Positions 1-43,327 of a DNA stretch of 49,212 bases are shown here, in pieces (positions within the stretch are counted from its first letter, which is position 1; each line of letters opens with the position of its first letter). A program made the position numbers and the translations under genes. Source of the DNA: Patescibacteria group bacterium (lineage in GTDB: Bacteria > Patescibacteriota > Patescibacteriia > UBA2196); assembly GCA_028748975.1 (NCBI GenBank), contig JAQTPI010000002.1:1-49212 (forward strand). Direction: 5' to 3'. Under the pieces are notes generated by a model, which worked only from the letters and a program-made list of their open reading frames with translations, made no database searches and was not told the DNA's origin.

Positions 1-46
1 CCCCTCCCCGCCTTGACTGGCGAGGCAGGCTTATAAAGGAGGGGAG
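1..46. repeat. CCCCTCC-family element, partial at the window edge, with an inner GC-rich insert
   Basis: CCCCTCC...TTATAAAGGAGGGG. Confidence 0.55.
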
Positions 47-57
47 TTTCTATCGGT

Positions 58-1149
58 ATGAAAATCGCTTTAGTCCATGACATGCTGGTCCAAGAGGGCG
101 GACAGGAAAGAGTGTTAAGAGCGCTCCAGGAATTGTTTCCGGAAGCGCCGACTTTTGTTTTGATTTATGACCGCGATAAAAAAGAAAAATTTTACGCGGA
201 TAAAGATATTCGCCCCAGTTTTTTGCAGAATTTTCCATGGGTGGAAAAAAAATATCAATGGTATTTGCCTCTGATGTCTGCGGCCATGGAGGCCCATGAT
301 TTAGGCGGTTTTGATTTGATTTTGTCTTCCAGTTCTTCTTTTGCCAAAGGCGTGATCGCGGGTCCTGGCACAATTCATATTTGCTACTGCCACACACCCA
401 CGCGGTATTTGTGGTCCAATTGGCAGGGTTATGTGGAAGATCTGCCTTACCCGGATTTCATTAAGAAATTTTTGCCATTTTATCTTTCGCAGCTACGCCA
501 CTGGGATTGGAGCGCGGCGCAACGGGTGGACAAATTTTTGGCTAATTCCAAGACAGTTAAGGAACGCATCAAAAGATACTACGCGCGCGAAGCCGAGGTG
601 ATTTATCCGCCGGTGGACACGCAAAAATTTTTTATCGCGCCCCAAATCGGCAATTATTATTTGATGGGCGGCCGACTGGTGCCCTACAAGCGCTATGATT
701 TGGCGATTCGCGCTTTTAACAAATTAAATATTCCACTTAAAATTTTTGGCGTGGGGCCGGAATTAAATCGTCTCAAGGCAATGGCCAAAAAAAATATAGA
801 ATTTTTAGGCGAAATTAGCGAAACGGCCAAGGCCAAACTTTATGCCGAATGCCTGGCTTTCATTAATCCGCAGGAAGAAGATTTTGGCATCACCGCGGTG
901 GAGGCGATGGCCGCGGGCCGGCCGGTGATCGCGTATCGCGCTGGCGGGGCATTGGAGACGGTGAAAGAAAGGGAAACGGGCGTGTTTTTTAATGATCAGG
1001 AATGGGAAGATTTAGCCAACACCATCATTCATTTTCAGGCGGAAAAATTTAATCCAGCAATAATAAAAAATCACGCCGAGCAATTTGGGCGTGAGAAGTT
1101 TAAGGAAGGAATAAAAAAGTTTATTGATGAAATTATTGGAAAAAATTAA
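58..1149 (+). CDS. Glycosyltransferase family 4 (GT-B) protein
   Basis: N-terminal MKIALVHD..., C-terminal EDFGITAVEAMAAGRPVIA signature of GT4 enzymes. Confidence 0.92.
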   Translation: MKIALVHDMLVQEGGQERVLRALQELFPEAPTFVLIYDRDKKEKFYADKDIRPSFLQNFPWVEKKYQWYLPLMSAAMEAHDLGGFDLILSSSSSFAKGVIAGPGTIHICYCHTPTRYLWSNWQGYVEDLPYPDFIKKFLPFYLSQLRHWDWSAAQRVDKFLANSKTVKERIKRYYAREAEVIYPPVDTQKFFIAPQIGNYYLMGGRLVPYKRYDLAIRAFNKLNIPLKIFGVGPELNRLKAMAKKNIEFLGEISETAKAKLYAECLAFINPQEEDFGITAVEAMAAGRPVIAYRAGGALETVKERETGVFFNDQEWEDLANTIIHFQAEKFNPAIIKNHAEQFGREKFKEGIKKFIDEIIGKN

Positions 1150-3335
1150 TATTCAAAAACCCAGATCTTTCCGTTATTGATTTCGAAATATACTTTGGCA
1201 CTTTGTTTGGCGGCTGGAATAAGTTTTTTAAAATTGGTCCAATAATCGGCGAAGATGACAAAAACCGTGTCAACGCCGGTTATTTTTTTTGCCTCACTGA
1301 TAAATTCCGGCTTAATGCCCTGATAGGTAATATTTAAATAAATTTTGTATAGTGGGGAAGAGGTTGGTAGGGGATAATAAAAAGTTCCATTATAATATTT
1401 TTTAAAACCAAACTCTTGCAGGGCAGCGGCGGCGGTGGACTGGTTGGCCAGGACAAGATAGTTTTTATTAGCACTAAGGCCCTCAACAAGGCGCACGGCA
1501 GTCAAGTCATCAGCGGAGACGGCAAAACCTTTGTTTTTGATGATAGTATCGTAGCGCGGATAGACCAAGTATAAAATGGAAACAGCACAAAAAGCAGCGC
1601 CAATTAAAAGGAGAATAACTCCTTTTTTTGTTTTGATGGCGATTTCAAAAATGTAGGCCAGAGCGATTAAAACAAAAGGCAAAATGAAAAAATAGGCGGA
1701 GTGAACCAGGCGCAGGGGAAAAATATTTTGCTCGTAATTGATGACGGATTGAAAAGTAAAAAGTTTGAGTGCCAAAGCATTTATAAGTAGAATTAAAGAG
1801 GCGAGGATAAAAAATGATTTTGATGTTTTTTTGAACTTATAAAAACCAAAGATGGAAAGAATAATAACAAGCGGATAAAAAATTATTTTTAAAAGATAAA
1901 GTGAATGTAAAAAAGAATCAAAAGGAAGATAGAAAACGCTGTTTTTGGCAGAGATTAGAAGTTCGCGCAGATTTTGCCAATGGAAAGAAAGTTGAAAATT
2001 TGGGAGGATTAAGGAGGCGAGAAAAAAAGCGAGCGGAACGGCAACGATTGATAAAATTAATAGGATTAATAAAACTAATTTATTTTTTTGACGCAAGGAT
2101 AAAAAAAGACAAAAAGTTAGAGCGGAAATTCCGGCGAGAGGATGAATGAAGGTGATGGCCAGAGCGAGGAACCAGAGAAAGGGAGTGATTTTTTTATTGT
2201 CATTCCGAGGGAGCGAAGCGACCGAGGGAATCTCGGACGAGATCCCATCACCCCTCTCCGCCAACTGGCGGATCGGGGTTCGGGATGACATCCACGCAAA
2301 AGCAAAAAATACAAAACAGATAAGAAAAATATTTGCCAGATGCTGTGGAGTGGTGAAGAAGAAAGAAAAAAGAGTTAAGAGACCAGCGAAGACAGCGGAA
2401 AATTGGGCGGCGGATTTGGAAAAGTTATTTTTGACAAGGGTGAAGTAGGCGAGAGTCGGAATTAGAATTGAACCGAGTGCGGGAGCCAAAATTTTATCAA
2501 AAAAAGAAAAATTGATGGCAAAAAGTTTAGAAAAAATTATCACCAGAGAATATTGTCCGATGTAATAGGGGGTTTTGGGGAGCACGACACCTTCCAGAGA
2601 AATTATTTTTTCGGCGGCGCGGTGGACAAAGGGATCAAAGCCATAGCCGATTTTATAAACCACAAGCGCCACGGCGCTGGAAAGCAAAATGTATAAAAAA
2701 ATTAAGGGACCGTTTTTATTTTCTGGATGCTTGATAATTTTGTAGAAAAGAACTAATGATAACAAAAAATAGACAACGAAAAAATAGGAGGGAATGACTT
2801 GCCAAGGACTGACGATGACGGAAGTGGAGCGGTGGAATATAAGTATTAAAAGCAATAGAAGCAATAAAAGTACTATAAGTAATGATGATAGTGAAAATTT
2901 TGGAAAGTGTATTTTTTGTTGATTGTTAATTGTTAATTGCTTACTGTTTATTAGAATCGTTGGTAAAAGCAAAATTATGGCGATGTTCCAATCATGAAGG
3001 CCGATGAGGTAATAAAAAATTGAGCCGGTGATTATTAAATAGGTGCAAAGAAAGAGAAAGCCGAGGATTGGTTTAAAATAATCGTCATCCCGAGCGAAGC
3101 CCGCTTCGACCGCGAAGCGAGGCGAGCGATGGGATCTTTCGGATAAAGATTCCATCAGTCGTTCCGAATTTTCGGAACTCCTTCGGAATGACAATAAACC
3201 GCCAGTTTTAAAGGAAAAATAAAAAAGATAGGCAAGTCCAATGGGGACGCCAAGAAGCGGGCTTTTGAGCCATAAAACATTAATTACTGCGAGTATGGCT
3301 ACAAGAAATGATAATAAATGCTTGACAAATTTCAT
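1146..3335 (-). CDS. Large multi-pass membrane protein (possible GT-C-type glycosyltransferase) with two in-frame palindromic-element insertions
   Basis: 760-aa ORF; start moved to ATG at 3335 (MKFVKHLL); many hydrophobic segments and a GYGFDPFVH luminal motif; function inferred. Confidence 0.75.
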   Translation of the reverse strand: MKFVKHLLSFLVAILAVINVLWLKSPLLGVPIGLAYLFYFSFKTGGLLSFRRSSENSERLMESLSERSHRSPRFAVEAGFARDDDYFKPILGFLFLCTYLIITGSIFYYLIGLHDWNIAIILLLPTILINSKQLTINNQQKIHFPKFSLSSLLIVLLLLLLLLILIFHRSTSVIVSPWQVIPSYFFVVYFLLSLVLFYKIIKHPENKNGPLIFLYILLSSAVALVVYKIGYGFDPFVHRAAEKIISLEGVVLPKTPYYIGQYSLVIIFSKLFAINFSFFDKILAPALGSILIPTLAYFTLVKNNFSKSAAQFSAVFAGLLTLFSFFFTTPQHLANIFLICFVFFAFAWMSSRTPIRQLAERGDGISSEIPSVASLPRNDNKKITPFLWFLALAITFIHPLAGISALTFCLFLSLRQKNKLVLLILLILSIVAVPLAFFLASLILPNFQLSFHWQNLRELLISAKNSVFYLPFDSFLHSLYLLKIIFYPLVIILSIFGFYKFKKTSKSFFILASLILLINALALKLFTFQSVINYEQNIFPLRLVHSAYFFILPFVLIALAYIFEIAIKTKKGVILLLIGAAFCAVSILYLVYPRYDTIIKNKGFAVSADDLTAVRLVEGLSANKNYLVLANQSTAAAALQEFGFKKYYNGTFYYPLPTSSPLYKIYLNITYQGIKPEFISEAKKITGVDTVFVIFADYWTNFKKLIPAAKQSAKVYFEINNGKIWVFEY
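2198..2290. repeat. GTCAT...ATGAC element, 93 bp, in frame in the 1146-3335 CDS
   Basis: TGTCATTCCG...CGGGATGACA; translates as MSSRTPIRQLAERGDGISSEIPSVASLPRND. Confidence 0.9.
3083..3193. repeat. GTCAT...ATGAC element, 111 bp, in frame, with a nested 27-bp core (3100-3126)
   Basis: GTCATCCCGAG...CGGAATGAC. Confidence 0.9.
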
Positions 3336-4216: not shown

Positions 4217-5935
4217 ATGAATTGGTTTGAAAAAAATAAAGAAATTACCATCCTCGCTGTTGTGGGCGTGGTTTTCTTTTTGGTTTATTCTTTTTTGCCA
4301 TTGGCGCAGATGACACAAAGTCCAGTGCCAATGAGCGAAGTTTCCATGCGTTTTAATACGCCGGATGAAGTGACAAATAATTATTTTACTAATTTGTATG
4401 CTGACAGTGGCCAAATGTTTTATAAAGAGCCGTTGAATTTGCTGGTAGGTGGTATAATTTTTCCGCGCTGGGCCAGGACGATTGATGAGAAAATTACGCC
4501 TGGGACTTTTCAGGGCATAATTTTAATTTACGGCAATATTGCCAAAATTATCGGCCGAGCAACAATTCCTTTTTTAACCCCCTTTTTTGCCGCGCTCGGC
4601 GTGATATTTTTTTATCTTTTAGTAAAAGAATTTTGGGAAAAGAACGTGGCTTTTGTCTCCGCGCTTTTAATGTTTATTTTCCCGGGATTTTGGTATTATG
4701 CCTCGCGTACCATGTTTCATAACGTGTTATTTTTGGTGTGTCTTATTATAGGATTGTTTTTTTTAGTAAAATTAATAAAATCAAATAAAGATAGTGAAGA
4801 CGCGGAAGAACGCGGAATACTACGCGGAAGAACGCGGAAATTTCTAATAAGTATTTTTTGCGGGCTATTTTTTGGATTGGCGTTGATTACGAGAACTTCA
4901 GAGGTTGTTTGGATGGTTTTAATTGTTTTAATACTTTTAACTGTTTTAAAACCAAAGATAAAAGAATTTTGGCCATACGCGTTGATTAGTATTGTTATCT
5001 GCGCGTTGTGTTTTCTGCCCATACTTCATAATAATAAAATTTTTTATGGTTCGTATTTTTCTTTTGGTTATTCTTCTACTGTGACGACTGATTTGGAAGA
5101 TGTTTCTTCCGCGCGGCCAATTGGTCTGGTGCAAGCCCTGCTTTTACCATTTGGTTTCCATCCGATAATTATAGCTAAAGTTTTTTATAACTATATTTTG
5201 AAATTATTTTGGCCATGGCTGATCTTGTGGCTGGCAGGATTAATTTGGTTTTGGAAAAGCAAACCAAATAAAGAGCAAAAGTTATTTATTATTTCGTCGT
5301 TAGTTGTTAGTTGTTGGTTGATTGTTTATTATGGTTCCTGGAAGTTTTCTGATAATTTAGCCGGTTTCACAAGCATTGGTTCTTCCTATGTTAGATATTT
5401 TTTACCGGCTTTTGTTTTGGGTTTGCCTTTGGTGGCGTGGGGAATAGTAGAATTATCTAATAAGATCAATAAATTTGATAAAATCAATAAGAAAATCGTT
5501 TTTTGTTTATTGTTAATTGTTATTTGTTTATTGCCGTGTTTTAGTTATCGCCAGGTTTTTTGGAGCGGGCCCGAGGCGCTGATGGGCGTAAAAAATAGTT
5601 TGCTATCGTATCGCGAACAAGCGGCTGATGTTTTGAAAATTACCAAAGAAAATGATATTATTTTGGTTGATGTTTCGCAGGATAAAATTATTTTTCCGGA
5701 ACGGAAACACATAATCGTGCCGCAAGGCGGAGGCGAATTAAAACCAGTTAAAGCATTGTTAGAGATTACAAATGTTTGGTTTTTTTATCGTTCAGCCGAA
5801 GCAAACCCTGATTTTTTGAATGAGAAAAAATTTAAACCATATGGACTGGAGATTTATGACGGAAAGGAACTTAATGGCGGGGGAATGATTTTTAAAGTTA
5901 AGGAATTTGAAAGAAAACTCGGTGTGTCATCCTGA
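4217..5935 (+). CDS. ArnT/PMT-like (GT39/GT-C) membrane glycosyltransferase
   Basis: 572 aa polytopic protein, PDE motif after TM1, YVRYFLP motif; stop codon supplied by a repeat element. Confidence 0.78.
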   Translation: MNWFEKNKEITILAVVGVVFFLVYSFLPLAQMTQSPVPMSEVSMRFNTPDEVTNNYFTNLYADSGQMFYKEPLNLLVGGIIFPRWARTIDEKITPGTFQGIILIYGNIAKIIGRATIPFLTPFFAALGVIFFYLLVKEFWEKNVAFVSALLMFIFPGFWYYASRTMFHNVLFLVCLIIGLFFLVKLIKSNKDSEDAEERGILRGRTRKFLISIFCGLFFGLALITRTSEVVWMVLIVLILLTVLKPKIKEFWPYALISIVICALCFLPILHNNKIFYGSYFSFGYSSTVTTDLEDVSSARPIGLVQALLLPFGFHPIIIAKVFYNYILKLFWPWLILWLAGLIWFWKSKPNKEQKLFIISSLVVSCWLIVYYGSWKFSDNLAGFTSIGSSYVRYFLPAFVLGLPLVAWGIVELSNKINKFDKINKKIVFCLLLIVICLLPCFSYRQVFWSGPEALMGVKNSLLSYREQAADVLKITKENDIILVDVSQDKIIFPERKHIIVPQGGGELKPVKALLEITNVWFFYRSAEANPDFLNEKKFKPYGLEIYDGKELNGGGMIFKVKEFERKLGVSS

Positions 5936-6041
5936 GCGAAGGCCCCGTATCGCGGGGCTGAAGTCGAAGGATCCCTTAGACCTTTCAAATGAGAAAAGCG
6001 AAGGGATTCCTCGACTCCGCTTCGCTACGCTTGGAATGACA
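5925..6041. repeat. GTCAT...ATGAC element supplying the TGA of the upstream gene
   Basis: TGTCATCCTGAG...GGAATGACA. Confidence 0.9.
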
Positions 6042-7362: not shown

Positions 7363-7567
7363 ATTTATAAATAAAATTTTTATTGGTGGTTTGATTTTTT
7401 TTCTGGTATTTTTTGCTTTGGAGTTGGTGAAAGAAGGGTTTGTGTCAAATTATTTTGATTTAAATATAGTTTTATTAATTGTGGTTATTTTTGGTATAAT
7501 GAGTTTAATATTAAAAAGGTGTCATCCTGAGGACCCCGAGTACTCGGGGGACGAAGGATCTCACTAG
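7355..7567 (+). CDS. Small two-TM membrane protein; C-terminus derived from a palindromic element
   Basis: Overlaps the upstream stop; two hydrophobic helices; last ~15 aa (CHPEDPEYSGDEGSH) read from the element starting at 7520. Confidence 0.62.
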   Translation: MSKFINKIFIGGLIFFLVFFALELVKEGFVSNYFDLNIVLLIVVIFGIMSLILKRCHPEDPEYSGDEGSH

Positions 7568-7687
7568 TTGTCATCCCAGCGAAAGCTGGGATCCAGAAAA
7601 AACAACGACGTGGATTCCGGGTCAAGCCCGGAATGACAAACAGCTACGAGATTCCTCGGCCGATGCGTTATCGGCCTCGGAATGACA
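7520..7687. repeat. Nested GTCAT elements (inner dRS3-like element at 7569-7638)
   Basis: Two complete sets of TGTCAT...ATGACA termini, one inside the other. Confidence 0.9.
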
Positions 7688-11091: not shown

Positions 11092-11103
11092 ATTTCAAGC
11101 TTC

Positions 11104-11216
11104 AAGCACCAATTTTCAAACAAATTTCAAATTTCAATGACCAAATTACAAACACGGCGGTTTAGAATTTGGAATTTAATATTTGTAATTTGTTTGTTAT
11201 TTGGGATTTGGTGCTT
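11104..11216. repeat. Heptamer-based long hairpin between ctpA and rplI
   Basis: AAGCACCAA...(AAATTTC)n...(GAATTTG)n...TTGGTGCTT. Confidence 0.7.
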
Positions 11217-11226
11217 AAAAAATTTT

Positions 11227-15061: not shown

Positions 15062-15132
15062 GTCATTCCGAGGGAGCGTAGCGACCGATGGAATCTTTAC
15101 TGAAAAGATCCCATCGTTGCGCTCGGGATGAC
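15062..15132. repeat. GTCAT...ATGAC palindromic element (minimal intergenic copy)
   Basis: GTCATTCCGAG...GGAATCT spacer AGATCCC...CTCGGGATGAC. Confidence 0.9.
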
Positions 15133-20842: not shown

Positions 20843-20871
20843 TGTCATCCCGGGCTTGACCCGGGATCCAG
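20843..20871. repeat. dRS3-like half element
   Basis: TGTCATCCCGGGCTTGACCCGGGATCCAG, matches the reverse complement of the right arm of the inner element at 7569-7638. Confidence 0.8.
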
Positions 20872-27410: not shown

Positions 27411-27463
27411 GTAATTTGCGTAAAATCGCGTATAAACTCGCGTGGAATCGCGATTATAAAGAA

Positions 27464-29407
27464 ATGAAAAAAATAAAATTCACAATCAACGGCAAAGAAT
27501 ATTTCGCGAAAAAAGGCGAGACGGTTTTGGATGTGGCTTTGCGCGAAAAAATTGAAATTCCACATTTGTGCAAGCATCCGGATCTGAAAATCAAAGGCAA
27601 CTGCCGGATGTGCTTGGTGGAGGCAGGCGGCCAAATTACCACCGCTTGTTCCACCGAAGTTCTGCCCGATTTGACAATCAAAACCAACACTAAAGAAGTG
27701 GAGCGCGGACGAAAAATAAATTTGGAATTGATTTTTTCCGAACACATTGAAAAATGTCCGACCTGCCTTTACCAAGACAATTGCACAATTTTAAAATATG
27801 CCGCCAAATATAATGTAAAAATCGCGCGGTTTGAAGACCGCAAGAAAAATTTTCCGGTTTGGCAGTTTTCCGATTCCATCCAATTTGATTCTTCCAAATG
27901 TATTGATTGCCGCAATTGCGAAGAGGTTTGCCGCGAAAAACAAGCGTGCAGTTTTTATGAAATTACGGAAGATAAGGGGGAAGACCAAATTATAAAACCC
28001 AAAGGGGAAGCAAACGGAAATCAGAAATTAGAAACCAGAAATCAGGGGGTAGACTTGTTAAAAAACGATCCGAATAAATTTGACTGCACCTATTGCGGGC
28101 AGTGCGTGACGCATTGTCCGGTCGGCGCCATTGCCGGTGTGTCGCACTGGCAGGCAGTGGAAAAATTATTACAAAATAAAAATGGCAAGGTTTTGATAGC
28201 GGAAATCGCGCCGTCAATTCGTGTTTCCATTGGCGAAGAATTCGGACAAGATTACGGCAAAATTATGACGGGACAATTGGCCGCTTCCATGAAAGCGCTT
28301 GGTTTTGATTATGCTTTTGATGTTAATTTGGGCGCGGATTTTACCACCTATGAAGAAGCTAAAGAATTGGTTAAATGGATTACCGAAGATAAACCGCGGC
28401 CGATGTTCACTTCCTGCTGTCCAGCTTGGGTGAAATTCGTGGAATTTTTCTATCCCGAATTTATTTCGCATTTAACTTCTGCCAATTCCCCTCACATGTG
28501 TTCCGGCCCGGTGATTAAAACTTTTTTTGCCGATTATTTGAAAAAAGACCCGCGCGATATTGAAATTGTTTCCATTATGCCTTGTACTTCCAAAAAACAC
28601 GAAATTGGTTTAGAAAAGCATCGAATTGATTTGGGCTGGTGTCTGGAACGGCTGGACTTGCCAAATATCGCCAGTGTTTGCCAAAGCCGCGGCGGATTGG
28701 CGGGGATTAAAGTGCCGGCGGTGGACCATATTTTGACCACGCGCGAATACGCATTTCTTTTGCATAAAAATAAAATTGATTTGCCAAATTTGAAACCAAT
28801 TGATTTGGACAGGCCACTCGGCGTGTCTTCCGGCGCCGGCGCGATTTATGGCGCTTCGGGCGGGGTCATGGAGTCCGCGCTCCGCAGCGCCGATTATTTT
28901 TTCCGTGTTTTAGACGAAACCGGTTCACTTGACCCGGTCATTAAGGGTGAAAATTATAAATTAAAGAAGAAAAGATTTTCTAAAATTTCTCAAAGCCGGA
29001 TTGAATTCAGAGAAGCGCGGGGACAGGCGGGAATTAAAACCGCACGCGTGAAAGTTGGGGGCAGAAAGTTAAATATCGCGGTGGCCAATGGCTTGGGTAA
29101 TGCCAAGAAAATTTTGGAAGATTTGAAAGCCGGCCGCGTCAAATATGATTATGTGGAGGTGATGGCCTGTCCCGGCGGCTGTATTGGCGGCGGAGGACAG
29201 CCGATTCCGACCAACGCGGAAATCAGAGCGAAGCGAGCGGCGGCTTTATATGAAATTGATAAAAATTTGCCAGTGCGCACGGCGCATGAAAATCCCAGTG
29301 TTTTGGAGGTTTATAACAAATATTTCAAAGGCGATGAAGAATTAATTGAGCATGTTTTGCATTCTAAGTTTAAAGTAAAGGAGCGCGAAGGTTACAAAGA
29401 GGTGTAG
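27464..29407 (+). CDS. hydA: [FeFe]-hydrogenase catalytic subunit (group A, M3-type architecture)
   Basis: 2Fe-2S (HLC..GNCRMC..TAC), HxxxCxxCxxxxxC, two 4Fe-4S (CIDCRNC, CTYCGQC), H-cluster motifs TSCCPAW, MPCTSKKHE, EVMACPGGCIGG; start moved to ATG at 27464. Confidence 0.93.
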   Translation: MKKIKFTINGKEYFAKKGETVLDVALREKIEIPHLCKHPDLKIKGNCRMCLVEAGGQITTACSTEVLPDLTIKTNTKEVERGRKINLELIFSEHIEKCPTCLYQDNCTILKYAAKYNVKIARFEDRKKNFPVWQFSDSIQFDSSKCIDCRNCEEVCREKQACSFYEITEDKGEDQIIKPKGEANGNQKLETRNQGVDLLKNDPNKFDCTYCGQCVTHCPVGAIAGVSHWQAVEKLLQNKNGKVLIAEIAPSIRVSIGEEFGQDYGKIMTGQLAASMKALGFDYAFDVNLGADFTTYEEAKELVKWITEDKPRPMFTSCCPAWVKFVEFFYPEFISHLTSANSPHMCSGPVIKTFFADYLKKDPRDIEIVSIMPCTSKKHEIGLEKHRIDLGWCLERLDLPNIASVCQSRGGLAGIKVPAVDHILTTREYAFLLHKNKIDLPNLKPIDLDRPLGVSSGAGAIYGASGGVMESALRSADYFFRVLDETGSLDPVIKGENYKLKKKRFSKISQSRIEFREARGQAGIKTARVKVGGRKLNIAVANGLGNAKKILEDLKAGRVKYDYVEVMACPGGCIGGGGQPIPTNAEIRAKRAAALYEIDKNLPVRTAHENPSVLEVYNKYFKGDEELIEHVLHSKFKVKEREGYKEV

Positions 29408-29857: not shown

Positions 29858-30448
29858 ATGTCAATAGCTACAACTTTATCCAAAATTCGAGTTGGTTATC
29901 TGATTAAATTTATTTTACTTCTGGCGCTGGCTACTGGCGCGCCGATTTTGGGGATTCATTCGCAGTGGCTTACCGGACCGATTGTTAATATGGCTTTAAT
30001 TTTAAGCGTGTTTTTGGTCGGCGTGCGCGGGGCGGTTTTAATCGGGCTTTTGCCTTCCACCATCGCACTTGGCACGGGACTTTTGCCAGCGGCGCTCGCA
30101 CCCATGGTGCCTTTTATTATTATTTCAAATATAATTTTAGTATTTTGTATTTCTTTTTTCCGTCATTCCGAGGGAGGTCCGATGAATATCGGACCGACCG
30201 ATGGAATCTCGGTTGAAGACCCCATCGCTTCGCTCGGGATGACGAATAAAAAATACTGGCTTGGTTTACTTTTTGCCGCCGGCCTGAAATTTCTTTTCCT
30301 TTTCCTAACTTCCGGTATCGTGATAAAATTACTGTTGAATCAAAAGCTCGCGCTCCCCGTGGCACAAATGATGAGCTGGCCCCAGTTTTATACCGCGCTT
30401 ATTGGTGGAATTTTAGCGTTTGTGGTTTTGAAAATTTTAAAAAAATAA
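29858..30448 (+). CDS. ECF transporter S-component-like membrane protein with an in-frame element insertion
   Basis: QWLTGPIVNMAL...PFIIISN...KF.FLF...QFYTALIGG pattern of S components. Confidence 0.75.
   Translation: MSIATTLSKIRVGYLIKFILLLALATGAPILGIHSQWLTGPIVNMALILSVFLVGVRGAVLIGLLPSTIALGTGLLPAALAPMVPFIIISNIILVFCISFFRHSEGGPMNIGPTDGISVEDPIASLGMTNKKYWLGLLFAAGLKFLFLFLTSGIVIKLLLNQKLALPVAQMMSWPQFYTALIGGILAFVVLKILKK
30161..30244. repeat. GTCAT...ATGAC element, 84 bp, in frame in the ECF S-component gene
   Basis: Translates as RHSEGGPMNIGPTDGISVEDPIASLGMT. Confidence 0.9.
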
Positions 30449-31169: not shown

Positions 31170-32450
31170 ATGTCAAATCCGAAAATTAAGTCCATAAAAG
31201 CAATTAAAAATCTGAAAAATAAAACAGTGCTTGTGCGCTGTGATTTTGATGTTCCGTTGAAACAACAAACAACAAACAACAAACAACAAACGACAAAAAA
31301 GTCGTCAGTTGTAAGTTGTAAGTTGTCGGTTGCTGACGACTCGCGGCTGCGGGCGGCAACTCCGACGATAAAATATCTTTTATCAAAAGGCGCGAGAGTG
31401 GTTTTGATGGGACACCTTGGCAGACCGGGCGGAGTGGTGAAAAAGGAATTGTCACTTTTGCCGGTGAAAAATCGATTGGGAAAATTACTTGGTGAGAAAA
31501 TAAGTTTTATATCTGACGAGATCCCATCGCTCGCTACGCTCGCTCGGGATGACGGTCGGTTGATAATGTTGGAAAATCTGCGCTTCAATCCCGGCGAGGA
31601 GAAAAATGACCCTAAATTTGCCAAGAAATTGGCGAAATTGGGCGATATTTATGTTAATGAGGCCTTTGCCGTCTCGCACCGAAGCGCGGCTTCGGTGGAC
31701 GCCATAAAAAAGTTTTTGCCATCTTATGCCGGTTTGAATTTGGAGCAGGAAATTTTACATCTGTCGGCGGTTCTAAACAAACCGCAAAAACCAATGGTGG
31801 CCATCATCGGCGGCGCGAAGATTGAAACTAAACTGCCAATGATCAAACAATTTTTGAAATCCGCGGATTACATTTTAATCGGCGGGGGAGTGGCGAATGA
31901 TTTTTTGAAAGCAAGGGGTTATGAGATTTATGGGTCGTTGGTGGACGATGATTATATAAATGAAGCCGGTAAAATATTAAAGAAATCAGAAATCGGAAAT
32001 CAGAAATCAGGAGAAGCAAAGTTAATTTTGCCAATAGATGTTGTTTGGTCTGACAATAAAATCAGGAGTTTATCCGCCGGAGCGTCTAAAGGGACGCCGG
32101 GGAGCGCAGGCGGAAAAACTCCAAAAATTTTGGATATCGGGCCGAAAACAATTTGGTTGTTTAGTGGTATAATTAAGAAAGCCAAGACGATTGTCTGGAA
32201 CGGTCCCATGGGCTATTTTGAAGACAAAAAATTTGCAACGGGCACAGAGAAAATAGCTGAAGTAATTTTGGCTAATAAAAAAGCGCAAAGAATAATTGGT
32301 GGTGGTGAAACAGGGGAAGTAATACAAAAAATAATCAGAAATCAGAAATCAGAAATTAGGAAAAATATTTTTATTTCCATTGGTGGTGGCGCCATGCTAG
32401 AGTATCTTGGAGGTAAAAAATTACCCGGATTGGATAAATTAATTAAATAG
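31170..32450 (+). CDS. pgk: Phosphoglycerate kinase (four repeat-derived segments)
   Basis: VRCDFDVP, HLGRP, LENLRF, GGAKIETK, WNGPMG, GGGET, SIGGGA. Confidence 0.96.
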   Translation: MSNPKIKSIKAIKNLKNKTVLVRCDFDVPLKQQTTNNKQQTTKKSSVVSCKLSVADDSRLRAATPTIKYLLSKGARVVLMGHLGRPGGVVKKELSLLPVKNRLGKLLGEKISFISDEIPSLATLARDDGRLIMLENLRFNPGEEKNDPKFAKKLAKLGDIYVNEAFAVSHRSAASVDAIKKFLPSYAGLNLEQEILHLSAVLNKPQKPMVAIIGGAKIETKLPMIKQFLKSADYILIGGGVANDFLKARGYEIYGSLVDDDYINEAGKILKKSEIGNQKSGEAKLILPIDVVWSDNKIRSLSAGASKGTPGSAGGKTPKILDIGPKTIWLFSGIIKKAKTIVWNGPMGYFEDKKFATGTEKIAEVILANKKAQRIIGGGETGEVIQKIIRNQKSEIRKNIFISIGGGAMLEYLGGKKLPGLDKLIK

Positions 32451-32453
32451 TTT

Positions 32454-32614
32454 TGTCATTCCGACCGAAGCCAGAACGATAGAGAGGGCGGAGTGCCCGC
32501 CCGAACGACTGACGTTGTTCAGTCGGGCGGGGAGGAATCCCTTATATTTCCCATATGAGATAGGCGAAGGGATCCCTTGGCTCTAAGCGACCCTAAAGGC
32601 CGTTCGGGATGACA
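32454..32614. repeat. GTCAT...ATGAC element carrying a nested 36-bp hairpin (32496-32531)
   Basis: TGTCATTCCG...CGGGATGACA termini; CCCGCCCGA...TCGGGCGGG inside the left arm. Confidence 0.88.
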
Positions 32615-38625: not shown

Positions 38626-38831
38626 TGTCATTCTGATCCGCCCTAGGCGGAGAAGAATCTCGTAATTTTATAGAACAGATATATAGAACAGATATAGGGA
38701 TATAAAGACATAAAGAAATACATAAACAAAGCCTTTTATATCCTTATTTCCTTATATCTTTATTATTTACCTTTTCAGTCACGAGATCCTTCACTTCGTC
38801 CCGAATACCCGGGACTTCGTTCAGGATGACA
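38626..38831. repeat. GTCAT...ATGAC element with an AT-rich 9-mer array in its spacer
   Basis: TGTCATTCTGA...GAATCT left arm; AGATCCTTCA...TCAGGATGACA right arm. Confidence 0.8.
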
Positions 38832-38843
38832 ATCATAAAGAAT

Positions 38844-40376
38844 ATGCTTAAAAAAATCGTTACTTTTCTCTTGTTTTTATATATTTTCTTGTTTTTACCG
38901 TTGCCCACGCAGGCGGCGGTAAATTTAGTTCGGACGCCGAGCAATACGGCGGTGTATTTTGTGGATGCCAGTAACGTTCGCCATGCTTTTCCCAACCAAA
39001 AAATTTACGAAAGTTGGTTTGGTAATGATTTCAAAAAAATTAGTTTTGTTTCGGAAGAAGCTTTGGCAAAACTGCCTTTGGGTAAAAACGTGGTTTTGAA
39101 AGCGGGAAAATATTTAGTAAAAATTCCTTCGGCCCCAGATGTTTACGCGGTGGAACCGGGCGGAACCTTGCGGCATATTGAAAGCGCGGAAGCGATGGAA
39201 ACAATTTATGGAAAGAATTGGCAACAAAAATTGATTGATTTGTCGGAAGTTTTTTTTGACGATTATGTTTTGGGCGCGCCGATTAAATTCGGCCATCAGA
39301 TTCCTGACGGCGTGGTTTATAAACTTATTAATAAAAATAATTATTACTACAAAACAGCCGGTCATTTGCAGAAATTTGCTTCTTGGCAGGATGTTTTGGC
39401 TAATGGCTATAATCAAAACGATGTGGTGGAAAACATTACTAGTTTCTTTTTGCACGGCGCGGAAATCGAGGGTTATGATGAAAATATTAATAATTTAGCG
39501 GCAGAAAATAATCTGGCCAGATATGATTGTGAGAATAAAAATTTAAGAGCCGCTTTTATTTTTGTTTATGACGGCACGTATAATTTGGAAGAAGTGGAAA
39601 AAATGAAAGCCATTAAAAATCGATTGCCGGAATATTTTAATTGGACGACGGACGGCTTGTCGCAATTAACTTTGGATAATGATATTTTTTTGATAAAAAA
39701 AGAAAATTATCATATTTTTGAGAGTAAATTGAGTTTGTCGCAGCTGGCTTTTGATTTTTATAAGCAACATTCCGATGTTTATGATTTTCTTTTCATTTTT
39801 GATAATTTCAGCGAGCCAAGCAAAATTATCGCCGAATATTATGCCGTGACCAACCAAATTGCCGGCATTCAAAAGCCGATTCTGAAAGCCGAAGTGCAGT
39901 ATGGCAGTTTGGGAAAATTAAAAGGCGTGATAAAAATGTTTAGTGTTAACAGCCATCTTTTCGGCAGTGACAGCGAACAAAATATCACCCTTAACAACAT
40001 AATTCATGAAATGCTTCACCAGTGGAGCGGGGTGTTTACTTTTTTGAATGATAAAAAAGAAGAAGATACTTCGTTGTATAATGAAAAACTCAAACATTGG
40101 TCAAATTATGTTAATTTTGTATCTCCCTTAGGCGGTTATGGCTGGAGGGATAACGGTGACGGTACTTTCACACAAACTTATGTGAACCAGAAAATTAAAC
40201 TTTCTAATTTGGATTTGTATGGCATGGGGCTTTTGCCACAGCGCGGCATTGGCGAAATTTTTTATATCGTGCCGGAGAATTCTTTAATCACCGATACAAT
40301 TTCTGCCAAAAAAGTTGTGGTCAGCGCGGATAGTTTGGTTAAGGCGATGGGGAAGTGGCAATGTTTGGTAAAATAA
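38844..40376 (+). CDS. Secreted protein with a putative zinc-metalloprotease domain
   Basis: Signal peptide (..PTQA), CPR-type N-terminal repeat region (VYFV..RHAF), IIHEMLHQW HEXXH motif. Confidence 0.72.
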   Translation: MLKKIVTFLLFLYIFLFLPLPTQAAVNLVRTPSNTAVYFVDASNVRHAFPNQKIYESWFGNDFKKISFVSEEALAKLPLGKNVVLKAGKYLVKIPSAPDVYAVEPGGTLRHIESAEAMETIYGKNWQQKLIDLSEVFFDDYVLGAPIKFGHQIPDGVVYKLINKNNYYYKTAGHLQKFASWQDVLANGYNQNDVVENITSFFLHGAEIEGYDENINNLAAENNLARYDCENKNLRAAFIFVYDGTYNLEEVEKMKAIKNRLPEYFNWTTDGLSQLTLDNDIFLIKKENYHIFESKLSLSQLAFDFYKQHSDVYDFLFIFDNFSEPSKIIAEYYAVTNQIAGIQKPILKAEVQYGSLGKLKGVIKMFSVNSHLFGSDSEQNITLNNIIHEMLHQWSGVFTFLNDKKEEDTSLYNEKLKHWSNYVNFVSPLGGYGWRDNGDGTFTQTYVNQKIKLSNLDLYGMGLLPQRGIGEIFYIVPENSLITDTISAKKVVVSADSLVKAMGKWQCLVK

Positions 40377-42175: not shown

Positions 42176-42303
42176 CTTTCACCTCCCCTTATTTTGTTGT
42201 TTTTTGGTCTAAATAAGCCAGATTTGGTTGGTCGTTTGTGGATAAATTTTATTATCTATTTCAATTATAGCATGTTTATTTTTTTGTGTCAAATGTCCGT
42301 TGG

Positions 42304-42427
42304 TTATCCCCTCCTTTCGAAGGAGGGGTGCGAGCCAGCAGGCGAGTGGGGTGGTTGTGGTTTGTATTTTTTTACAACCCCTCCGTTCCGTTGCTACGGA
42401 ACACCTCCCCTTCGAAAGGGGAGGATA
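42304..42427. repeat. Pair of CCCCTCC-family elements
   Basis: 42304-42356 and 42374-42427, near-identical to the 27295-27410 units. Confidence 0.85.
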
Positions 42428-42492
42428 ATCGCGGTGTAATTCGCGTAAATTTGTGTTCATATTTGTGTAGATTTGTGTGTAAAACTTTTATT

Positions 42493-43227
42493 ATGTTAGA
42501 ACGCCTGCAAAAAATTTTAGCTCGTCAGGGGATTGCTTCTCGCCGCGGGGCGGAGGAGCTGATTTTGGCTGGAAAAATTAAGGTGAATGGCAGGATAGCA
42601 AAAATAGGAGAAAAATATGATGAGGAAGAGGATGAAATTGAGGTGGATGGGAAGAAGCTAATGAAAAATGAAAAACGAAAAATGAAAAATAATGGAAATT
42701 CAAATTTTGTATACTATTTACTTAATAAGCCACGCGGTTATGAATGTTCTTTGGTAGCTCGCCACGGCGATAAATTGGCAGTGGATTTGGTGCCGAAATT
42801 TCCCAGAGTTTGGACGGTTGGCCGGCTGGATAAAAATAGCCGCGGACTACTCATTTTAACTAATGACGGCAAACTGACTGAAGAATTGACGCACCCGAAA
42901 TTTGAACACGAAAAAGAATATGAAGTATTGGTGAATAAACCATTGACTAATGATTTTTTTCGCCGAATGCAAAAAGGCGTGGCACTTTCCGAAGGGTTGG
43001 CGCGCGCCGACAAAATCCGCCAGCTCGGAGATAAGAAATTTTCTTTAACTTTGCATCAGGGCTGGAAAAGGCAGATTAGAAGAATGTGCGAAAGTTTGGG
43101 GTATCGGACGATTGATTTGGTGAGGGTGAGGGTGGGGAAGTGGAGGCTTGGAAATTTACGCGAAGGTAAGTTTCGCAAGATTAATGGGTGTCATCCTGAG
43201 GAGCGAGAGCGACGAAGGATCTCGTAG
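42493..43227 (+). CDS. RsuA/RluB family rRNA pseudouridine synthase
   Basis: S4 domain ERLQKILARQGIASRR, LNKPRG, GRLDKNSRGLL (catalytic Asp), RQIRRMC; start moved to ATG at 42493. Confidence 0.93.
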   Translation: MLERLQKILARQGIASRRGAEELILAGKIKVNGRIAKIGEKYDEEEDEIEVDGKKLMKNEKRKMKNNGNSNFVYYLLNKPRGYECSLVARHGDKLAVDLVPKFPRVWTVGRLDKNSRGLLILTNDGKLTEELTHPKFEHEKEYEVLVNKPLTNDFFRRMQKGVALSEGLARADKIRQLGDKKFSLTLHQGWKRQIRRMCESLGYRTIDLVRVRVGKWRLGNLREGKFRKINGCHPEERERRRIS

Positions 43228-43327
43228 TTAAAGTAATAAATAATAAAGATATAAGGAAATAAGGATATAAAAGGCTGGTCGCCTATATCTTTATATCTCT
43301 ATATCCTTATATCTTTTTCATAAAATA

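Follow-up and report, generated by a model that had tools for sequence, protein, structure and literature searches.

Palindromic repeats resembling CGTC-tagged REPs lie in frame within a membrane-protein gene of a Patescibacteria genome

In-frame insertion of Rickettsia palindromic elements (RPEs) into genes was reportedly first described by Ogata et al. in 2000. Part of the RPEs fall within a class of short repeats known as CGTC-tagged repetitive extragenic palindromes (REPs; Di Nocera, De Gregorio & Rocco 2013, BMC Genomics 14:522; PMC3733652): according to that survey, R. conorii RPE-6 corresponds to CGTC-1, RPE-4 to CGTC-4, and the Neisseria repeat dRS3 to CGTC-1. A CGTC REP is defined there by a terminal, unpaired CGTC, often TGTC (or CCTC), an 8-9 bp stem that opens with an A-T and a T-A pair, a loop of 4-5 nt (exceptions exist), and a tail that is short, unpaired and in most cases CCA. 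The repeats mainly form inverted dimers; heterodimers are frequent and spacers variable. They sit 3' of genes and are sometimes intragenic, and have no dedicated transposase. They are reported from five phyla, Patescibacteria not among them. Here we describe two such elements, A and B, that lie in frame in a single membrane-protein gene of a bacterium of the Patescibacteria, within a stretch of 49,212 nt from contig JAQTPI010000002.1 (assembly GCA_028748975.1) that we call the window.

Two other kinds of small palindrome invite comparison. The MITEs (miniature inverted-repeat transposable elements) such as Correia, Nezha and ERIC carry terminal inverted repeats that originate in a parent insertion sequence (IS), and generate target-site duplications. 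Systems of REP doublets forming hairpins (REPINs) and REP-associated tyrosine transposases (RAYTs) are reportedly treated by Bertels & Rainey in 2011 and by Nunvar in 2010. Among GTAG REPs, RAYTs recognise inverted hairpin doublets with a conserved unpaired 5' tag (PMC3733652). The same survey gives intragenic CGTC-1 dimers of R. conorii that read SFLRKQES...DSRFRGND and SFPRKRES...DSRFRGND, in genes for penicillin-binding protein 1C, an antiporter subunit and MurB, and intragenic dimers of S. wittichii that read RHAGGGR...PASAGMT and VIPAKAGI...PAFAGMT; it handles RPE-1, the classic case and a longer element, apart from the REPs.

The host gene (1146-3335, minus strand) is an intact open reading frame (ORF) that encodes, from its ATG, a 729-aa polytopic membrane protein of an uncharacterised family of the candidate phyla radiation (CPR). 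Element B (2198-2290, 93 bp) has the ends tGTCATTCCGAG...TTCGGGATGACa and encodes aa 349-379 (MSSRTP...SLPRND); element A (3083-3193, 111 bp) has the ends cGTCATCCCGAG...CTTCGGAATGACa and encodes aa 49-85 (SFRRSS...GFARDD). These lengths include a flanking Y/R base, and from GTCAT to ATGAC the elements measure 91 and 109 nt. Both are stop-free in the gene frame, where B reads AW[MSSRTPIRQLAERGDGISSEIPSVASLPRND]NKK and A reads LL[SFRRSSENSERLMESLSERSHRSPRFAVEAGFARDD]DYF, and both use the frame xxG TCA TYC CGA ... CGG RAT GAC. Their GC content is 51-62%, compared with 40.5% window-wide, and as single-stranded DNA they fold with z-scores of -3.8 and -5.2 relative to shuffled sequences. At the element flanks, the palindrome is extended by a T...A or C...G pair, with no direct duplication.

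Each element is a tag-outward heterodimer of two different modules. Element B consists of a left module on the plus strand (2199-2235; GTC AT TCC GA GG [GA GC GAA GC GA] CC GA G GGA AT CTCG) and a right module on the minus strand (2238-2289; GTCATCCCGAA [CCCCGATCCGCC AGTT GGCGGAGAGGGG] TGATGGGATCTCG). The left module of element A (3084-3139, plus strand) runs GTCATCCCGAG...GCGATGGGATCTTT around a nested GCGAAGCGGGCTTCGC-like hairpin, and the right module (3148-3192, minus strand) reads GTCATTCCGAAGGA [GTTCCGAA AATT TTCGGAAC] GACTGATGGAATC. An original prediction made from the DNA sequence alone had described elements of 93 and 111 bp, both multiples of three, with GTCATYCCG...CGGRATGAC termini, that add hydrophilic peptides between transmembrane segments of an intact ORF. 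The sequence and its translation confirm the lengths, the ORF and the peptides, a hydropathy profile places both inserts between hydrophobic segments, and the terminal motif proved to be strongly enriched in the window: allowing one mismatch, GTCATYCCGRR matches 22 times, compared with 3.85 +/- 1.95 expected from 100 shuffles of the window, none of which reached 22.

By relaxed pattern search and inspection we identified 21 modules in the window, mostly intergenic, of which three stand singly while the rest make up seven dimers and one tetramer; a whole-module pattern matches eight times against an expectation of zero. A module starts with (C/T)GTC, AT and a pyrimidine triplet (TCC, CCC or CCT); at its other end the purine triplet complementary to this one is followed by AT and C. 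GTC is present at the start of all 21 modules and is preceded in most by C or T (for example tGTCAT at 2198 and cGTCAT at 3083, 15061 and 30161). The AT...AT closing pairs are found in every module. Three modules (20844, 7570 and 7610) have a clean 8-bp stem; in the others, including all four of elements A and B, 5-6 pairs are followed by GAG/CGA, which would form tandem G.A mismatches. The nested hairpins vary in sequence between copies but are self-complementary in each, with inner stems such as GC/GC, CCCCGAG/CTCGGGG, GGTCCGAT/ATCGGACC, GGCCGAT/ATCGGCC, CCGCC/GGCGG and GTTCCGAA/TTCGGAAC. Two modules facing each other with their tags outward make up one element, and whole dimers fold as single-stranded DNA with z-scores of -3.8 to -5.3 relative to shuffles.

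Most copies lie a few bases 3' of genes; four are intragenic, and two provide the last codons of a gene. Each of the four intragenic copies has a length divisible by three and no stop in the frame used; in the long intergenic copies, by contrast, five or all six frames contain stops. Of seven intergenic elements, three share this length class, so divisibility by three does not characterise the family as such.

The window copies resemble the CGTC REPs of the survey in their (C/T)GTC tag, AT-first stem, inverted dimers, heterodimers and variable spacers, in their position, either 3' of genes or within a gene and in frame, and in the lack of a dedicated transposase; modules 20844, 7570 and 7610 agree on all points, including the 4-5 nt loop and CCA tail. 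They differ in being hosted by Patescibacteria. By architecture, elements A and B thus fit the CGTC-tagged REP superfamily, to which part of the RPEs belong; the comparison with RPEs covers architecture and encoded terminal peptides. Like RPE-6 and RPE-4, which add 20-35 hydrophilic residues and lie in many genes for membrane proteins, they are palindromes lying in frame in intact genes, and they encode terminal peptides of the same kind (SF.R...R.ND; VIP...GMT;.HS...). The frames and end residues of SFRR...FARDD and SSR...LPRND, and of RHSEGG...ASLGMT from a further window copy, correspond to those of the R. conorii and S. wittichii dimers as the survey gives them. As with RPEs, the insertion is in frame, in an intact ORF, and missing from orthologues; unlike RPEs, the elements occur in another genus and phylum and have an unrelated interior, judging by the peptides. 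The analogy with RPEs that the original prediction had drawn is thus supported by the shared superfamily and the matching terminal peptides, at the superfamily level at most and not as membership of an RPE family.

REPINs are likewise dispersed, high-copy units made of a doublet of inverted REP hairpins, but they are defined by a GTAG tag and a REP-flanked cognate RAYT, whereas the window copies have a (C/T)GTC tag and a search of the window and 128 loci (942 kb) found no RAYT. MITEs share the small size and the palindromic form and occasionally lie in frame; in contrast to them, no parent IS is seen in the window, and elements A and B show no evident target-site duplication. In the literature searched, we found no report linking REPs or MITEs with Patescibacteria, nor any on the terminal sequences. 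In-frame palindromic repeats are known already from Rickettsia and from REPs of several phyla, and what appears to be new is the in-frame occurrence in Patescibacteria of CGTC-type repeats with elaborated hairpins.

We next compared the host protein with its homologues, of which a search returned 159 at E <= 0.001; all statements below about homologues of the host protein concern the best 120 of these 159 (119 plus the window protein). None of the 119 others carries the two inserts. The closest orthologues, P0002 (663 aa) and P0004 (673 aa), are 69-76% identical to the window protein and have short Lys/Asn loops at both sites, reading ..AFVF-KNNK-FLW.. at site B and ..GKKLFNSEENW.. at site A, so that the window protein has a net gain of 31 aa at each site. 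The inserts being confined to the window protein, parsimony points to a gain in its lineage, with the copies probably acquired after this lineage split from its nearest sampled relatives. The original prediction had proposed an orthologue alignment to look for empty sites and had named equivalent loops unrelated to the repeat, in orthologues of diverse taxa, as evidence against its reading; the empty sites were found and no other listed homologue has the two inserts, and together with the recurrence of the same repeat elsewhere in the window this supports its suggestion of an RPE-like process making new protein loops. The Lys/Asn-rich character of the loops in orthologues suggests, by the positive-inside rule, that the entered loops are cytoplasmic, and at the DNA level such loops would correspond to A-rich codons.

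The host protein has no Pfam match; one homologue has a weak sub-threshold match to DUF6541, and the homologues bearing names all come from Patescibacteria, including Falkowbacteria, Kuenenbacteria and Parcubacteria, which supports the assignment to the CPR. An AlphaFold2 model built from 67 sequences has a mean predicted local distance difference test score (pLDDT) of 90.3 and a predicted template modelling score (pTM) of 0.92. The pLDDT-poor parts of the model are the two inserts alone, at 47-70 for insert A (residues 51-80, in blocks of 69, 70 and 47) and 55-61 for insert B (residues 351-380, in blocks of 58, 55 and 61); insert A is modelled partly as extended flanking helices and insert B as coil. 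Structure comparisons with Foldseek gave STT3 (6s7t_A; E 5.7e-3, TM-score 0.35) as the top match, followed by AglB and AftA; the resemblance of the modelled fold to GT-C glycosyltransferases is weak. Pfam assigns the adjoining genes to a GT4 glycosyltransferase and a PMT_2/STT3-like protein. The family's invariant residues are kept along the full alignment, and compared with its counterpart in the related locus L004 the host gene shows 58% identity at third codon positions and 73% amino-acid identity. Judged from the open frame, the full-length alignment, the invariant residues, the model confidence and this codon-position pattern, the host gene is intact; the inserted peptides are probably made and the gene is probably still working.

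Insertions of related and unrelated palindromes recur in the same gene family. At site A, P0005 carries a single CGTC module (GTCATTCCCGC...GCGGGAATC), and at site B both P0003 (locus L003) and P0005 (locus L002) carry an unrelated in-frame palindrome in the same loop as element B (GAATTTTTGCC-GAGGACTGTCTGAGCGCCGTAGGCGCGAGTTCCGCAG-AAAAAAATTC, reading ..EDCLSAVGASSAE..). Module-derived inserts also occur in P0009 (CCHPERMERSG..) and P0113 (..GRMT), and locus L002 also has a module within a 392-aa ORF. In the window itself, a dimer (30162-30243) lies in frame in an ECF-S-like membrane gene (29858-30448), where it reads RHSEGGPMNIGPTDGISVEDPIASLGMT (RHSEGG...ASLGMT) in a frame that differs from that of inserts A and B. 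Taken together, the insertion events are spread over all three forward frames, which speaks against a preference for any one peptide; the filter on insertions appears to be a stop-free sequence and a tolerant loop. The ECF-S-like loop is a family-wide insertion hot spot: more than 50 members have a short Lys/Asn loop there, others have unrelated inserts, and P0197 has a canonical VIPGLTRNP...DSRFRGND dimer.

The fourth intragenic copy is a single module (31517-31553, minus strand; reading DEIPSLATLARDD) inside the phosphoglycerate kinase (PGK) gene (31170-32450). An exact 34-mer of one module variant matches a single locus, L128, among 241 million metagenome records; each variant is thus specific to a lineage. 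L128 is syntenic with the window across the ECF-S gene, a small gene, and the PGK, NUDIX and enolase genes, and it shares both the ECF-S dimer, in the same place, and the PGK module; these two insertions are therefore older than the split between the two loci. Inserts A and B, unlike these copies, have no such counterpart. The PGK gene also contains two further in-frame palindromes, of other kinds, that are shorter or absent in the L128 gene, one at 31262-31330 in which (CAACAAA)n faces (TTGTAAG)n, reading QQTTNNKQQTTKKSSVVSCKLSVA, and one at 32066-32123 (GGAGTTTATCCGCC...GGCGGAAAAACTCC, reading RSLSAGASKGTPGSAGGKTP).

We propose that elements A and B are copies of a dispersed, non-coding, GC-rich REP of the CGTC type, whose module comprises a (C/T)GTC tag and an AT-first hairpin, the stem in this genome usually lengthened by GA/AG mismatches and enclosing a variable nested hairpin. 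These copies would have entered AT-rich, Lys/Asn-coding stretches of the host gene after the split from the nearest sampled relatives, most likely by transposition of a hairpin-forming single strand with an enzyme supplied in trans. They would have survived because each is a whole number of codons without a stop in the frame used, and because each landed in a short loop between transmembrane segments that tolerates about 31 more hydrophilic residues. Being in frame and stop-free in such tolerant loops, the inserts most probably form part of the translated protein, as loop extensions with little order. Overall, we put the probability that CGTC-type repeat copies were gained in frame and tolerated in loops at roughly 0.85.

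Several observations weigh against this explanation. No target-site duplication is evident, and no relative provides an empty-site allele more than 95% identical; the nearest relative has about 74% DNA identity, so neither the pre-insertion sequence nor any target duplication can be reconstructed. The loop residues next to site A differ as well, which puts the exact junctions beyond reconstruction. In PGK, the module aligns colinearly with residues native to solved PGKs and makes no net insertion, so simple insertion fails to explain every intragenic copy. Unlike the published CGTC REPs, most window modules have mismatch-interrupted (GA/AG) stems and nested hairpins, and the long modules have tails of CTC, CCT or CTT, not CCA. 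The inserted peptides are predicted from the sequence. Finally, Pfam finds no transposase domain in the roughly 33 ORFs of the window, which are housekeeping genes, and a search of all ORFs of at least 60 aa with phmmer and a profile from nine published RAYT/TIRYT sequences gave no RAYT/IS200-like ORF in the window or in 128 loci (942 kb), even at E 10. The part of the host genome covered is 49 kb of a contig of at least 117 kb, so the transposase negative is weak evidence; it agrees with the lack of a dedicated CGTC transposase in the published survey (PMC3733652).

Of the alternatives, the one we hold possible, if doubtful, is compatible with an origin by insertion: while being translated, the intragenic hairpins would be maintained by selection acting on DNA or RNA, for instance through roles in mRNA stability, pausing or as a protein-binding site, or would be continually homogenised against other copies. 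Between the window and L128, whose ECF-S genes are 85.7% identical in nucleotides, the 8-bp inner stem of the dimer changes from GGTCCGAT/ATCGGACC to GGCCCAGT/ATTGGGCC; the substitutions, which fall mainly on third codon positions, amount to two compensatory double changes plus a single G.T. Inner hairpins that otherwise vary between copies retain their self-complementarity. A compensatory pattern such as that of the ECF-S stem would arise by chance with a probability of about 0.04-0.08 given five transitions in a 16-nt stem, however, each comparison involves two sequences, and identity across the whole ECF-S element (90.5% against 85%) is not significantly raised. In the PGK module, 13 of 14 third codon positions are identical to L128, as against 57% elsewhere in the gene (binomial p ~0.004). 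The ECF-S genes of loci L129 and L130 contain another dimer subfamily at identical boundaries (TTTTTTC|YGTCAT...ATGAC|RAATA), as expected of replacement by recombination between copies. Inserts A and B themselves are shared by no orthologue, so constraint cannot be assessed there, and they have no Rfam match. These data give a suggestive hint that intragenic copies are constrained, homogenised or replaced at the nucleic-acid level. A broader version, in which CGTC-type elements of CPR genomes would stay 'alive' inside genes, their hairpins kept by compensation or conversion, their cassettes swapped at fixed boundaries, and Lys/Asn loops serving as recurrent landing pads, is speculative and in our view improbable as a whole.

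It is also unlikely that the elements are strict REPINs, that is, REP doublets copied by a single-copy RAYT (an IS200-like HUH tyrosine transposase) encoded elsewhere in the genome. The inverted-hairpin doublet with its unpaired 5' tag is the architecture that RAYTs recognise in GTAG REPs, but the tag here is (C/T)GTC, the survey reports no RAYT flanked by CGTC repeats (PMC3733652), and neither the RAYT search of the window and 942 kb of module-bearing loci nor the Pfam scans of the window produced a candidate. We consider it very unlikely that the inserts are missing from the mature protein, whether because the gene is a decaying pseudogene or because the hairpins are excised from the RNA or skipped there. 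The low model confidence is confined to the inserts, and the peptides are predicted from sequence, which would suit this idea; against it stand a frame intact over 729 codons with the invariant residues kept, the absence of an Rfam match to any known small splicing element, and the contrast between the open, multiple-of-three intragenic copies and the stop-laden long intergenic ones, a constraint expected only if the copies are translated. We give almost no credence to the idea that the loops are ancestral and were lost in relatives, or that the elements are an assembly chimera. Repeats can mislead assemblers, and the contig of an independent Logan assembly (L005) terminates within element A, as contigs do at repeats; yet this contig is 100% identical to window positions 17-3113, so that element 2199-2289 is complete in it, and it covers element B with both junctions and the left junction of element A. 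Moreover, the inserts occur in the window protein only, the same DNA recurs between genes, and its GC content is foreign to the host gene.

The genomes of Patescibacteria are tiny and presumably strongly streamlined, so a heavy load of palindromic repeats is unexpected. Within one 49-kb window, in-frame copies lie in the genes for phosphoglycerate kinase, for a membrane protein and for a component of an ECF-type transporter. What has chiefly been known from Rickettsia is thereby extended to a distant phylum whose lifestyle is similarly reduced and host-dependent. For annotation, this calls for caution, as many odd loop insertions and C-terminal tails of CPR proteins are repeat-derived. The many natural filled and empty sites offer material for studying how CGTC repeats move with no known transposase, and if Lys/Asn loops do act as landing pads, these short loops would be a source of loop diversity in cell-envelope proteins.

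Beyond the window, a genome scan with a general module pattern (one genome per species; at least 120 matches) returned, among the matches listed, Bacteroidota, Chloroflexota, Ignavibacteriota, Acidobacteriota, Verrucomicrobiota, Planctomycetota, Nitrospirota, Roizmanbacteria and others. The stem triplets are Watson-Crick-matched in 63 of the 117 distinct matches listed, against 25% expected. Given the many phyla and the matched stems, the superfamily is therefore very widespread. A viral scan with the same pattern (at least 120 matches) gave mostly chance-like hits among the matches listed.

The remaining copies in the window are distributed as follows. The first bases of an intergenic dimer at 5926-6040 supply the last codons (..V S S) and TGA stop of the PMT_2/STT3-like ORF 4217-5935, both derived from GTGTCATCCTGA. 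A four-module intergenic cluster (7521-7686) contains two canonical short CGTC REPs, one at 7570 (GTC ATCCCAGC GAAA GCTGGGAT CCAG) and one at 7610-7637 on the minus strand (GTC ATTCCGGG CTTGA CCCGGAAT CCAC), and a single canonical module lies on the plus strand at 20844-20871 (tGTC ATCCCGGG CTTGA CCCGGGAT CCAG). One dimer (15062-15132) is located 7 nt downstream of the NifU gene, and a long one (32455-32613) fills the PGK-enolase spacer. Two modules around an AT-rich spacer (38627-38830) lie between the iPGM gene and ORF 38826-40376, and a single plus-strand module (43190-43224) forms the last 12 codons of the pseudouridine synthase-like ORF 42286-43227. CCT-type modules, which have a TGA in one frame, occur within the window solely at gene ends or between genes. 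A 63-nt part of the 38627-38830 spacer recurs inverted, at 87% complementarity, at 43214-43276 beside module 43190; the two copies, within 38627-38830 and 43190-43321, flank about 4.4 kb containing ORF 38826-40376, the Fpg gene and the pseudouridine synthase gene.

Searches for other kinds of element were also made. A BLAST search of element B against plasmids gave one uninformative 35-nt match, and a tRNA/tmRNA search of the window found none. Rfam reported no family at gathering thresholds across the whole window; its sole weak match in 2100-3300, SscA (E 0.53), was taken as chance. Strings resembling a hammerhead ribozyme (CUGA.GA...GAA-like) were considered and rejected, since most copies have CCGAG instead of CUGA and Rfam is silent. 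Elsewhere, an AT-rich imperfect palindrome of 128 nt (11093-11220), with 72% complementarity between its 61-nt arms, overlaps the start predicted for the gene of ribosomal protein L9, in which the Pfam L9 domain begins only at residue 31. At the [FeFe]-hydrogenase large-subunit gene (27416-29407), where no CGTC module was seen, the Fe_hyd_lg_C match covers 335 residues against a 245-position profile, suggesting that this subunit carries roughly 90 extra residues.

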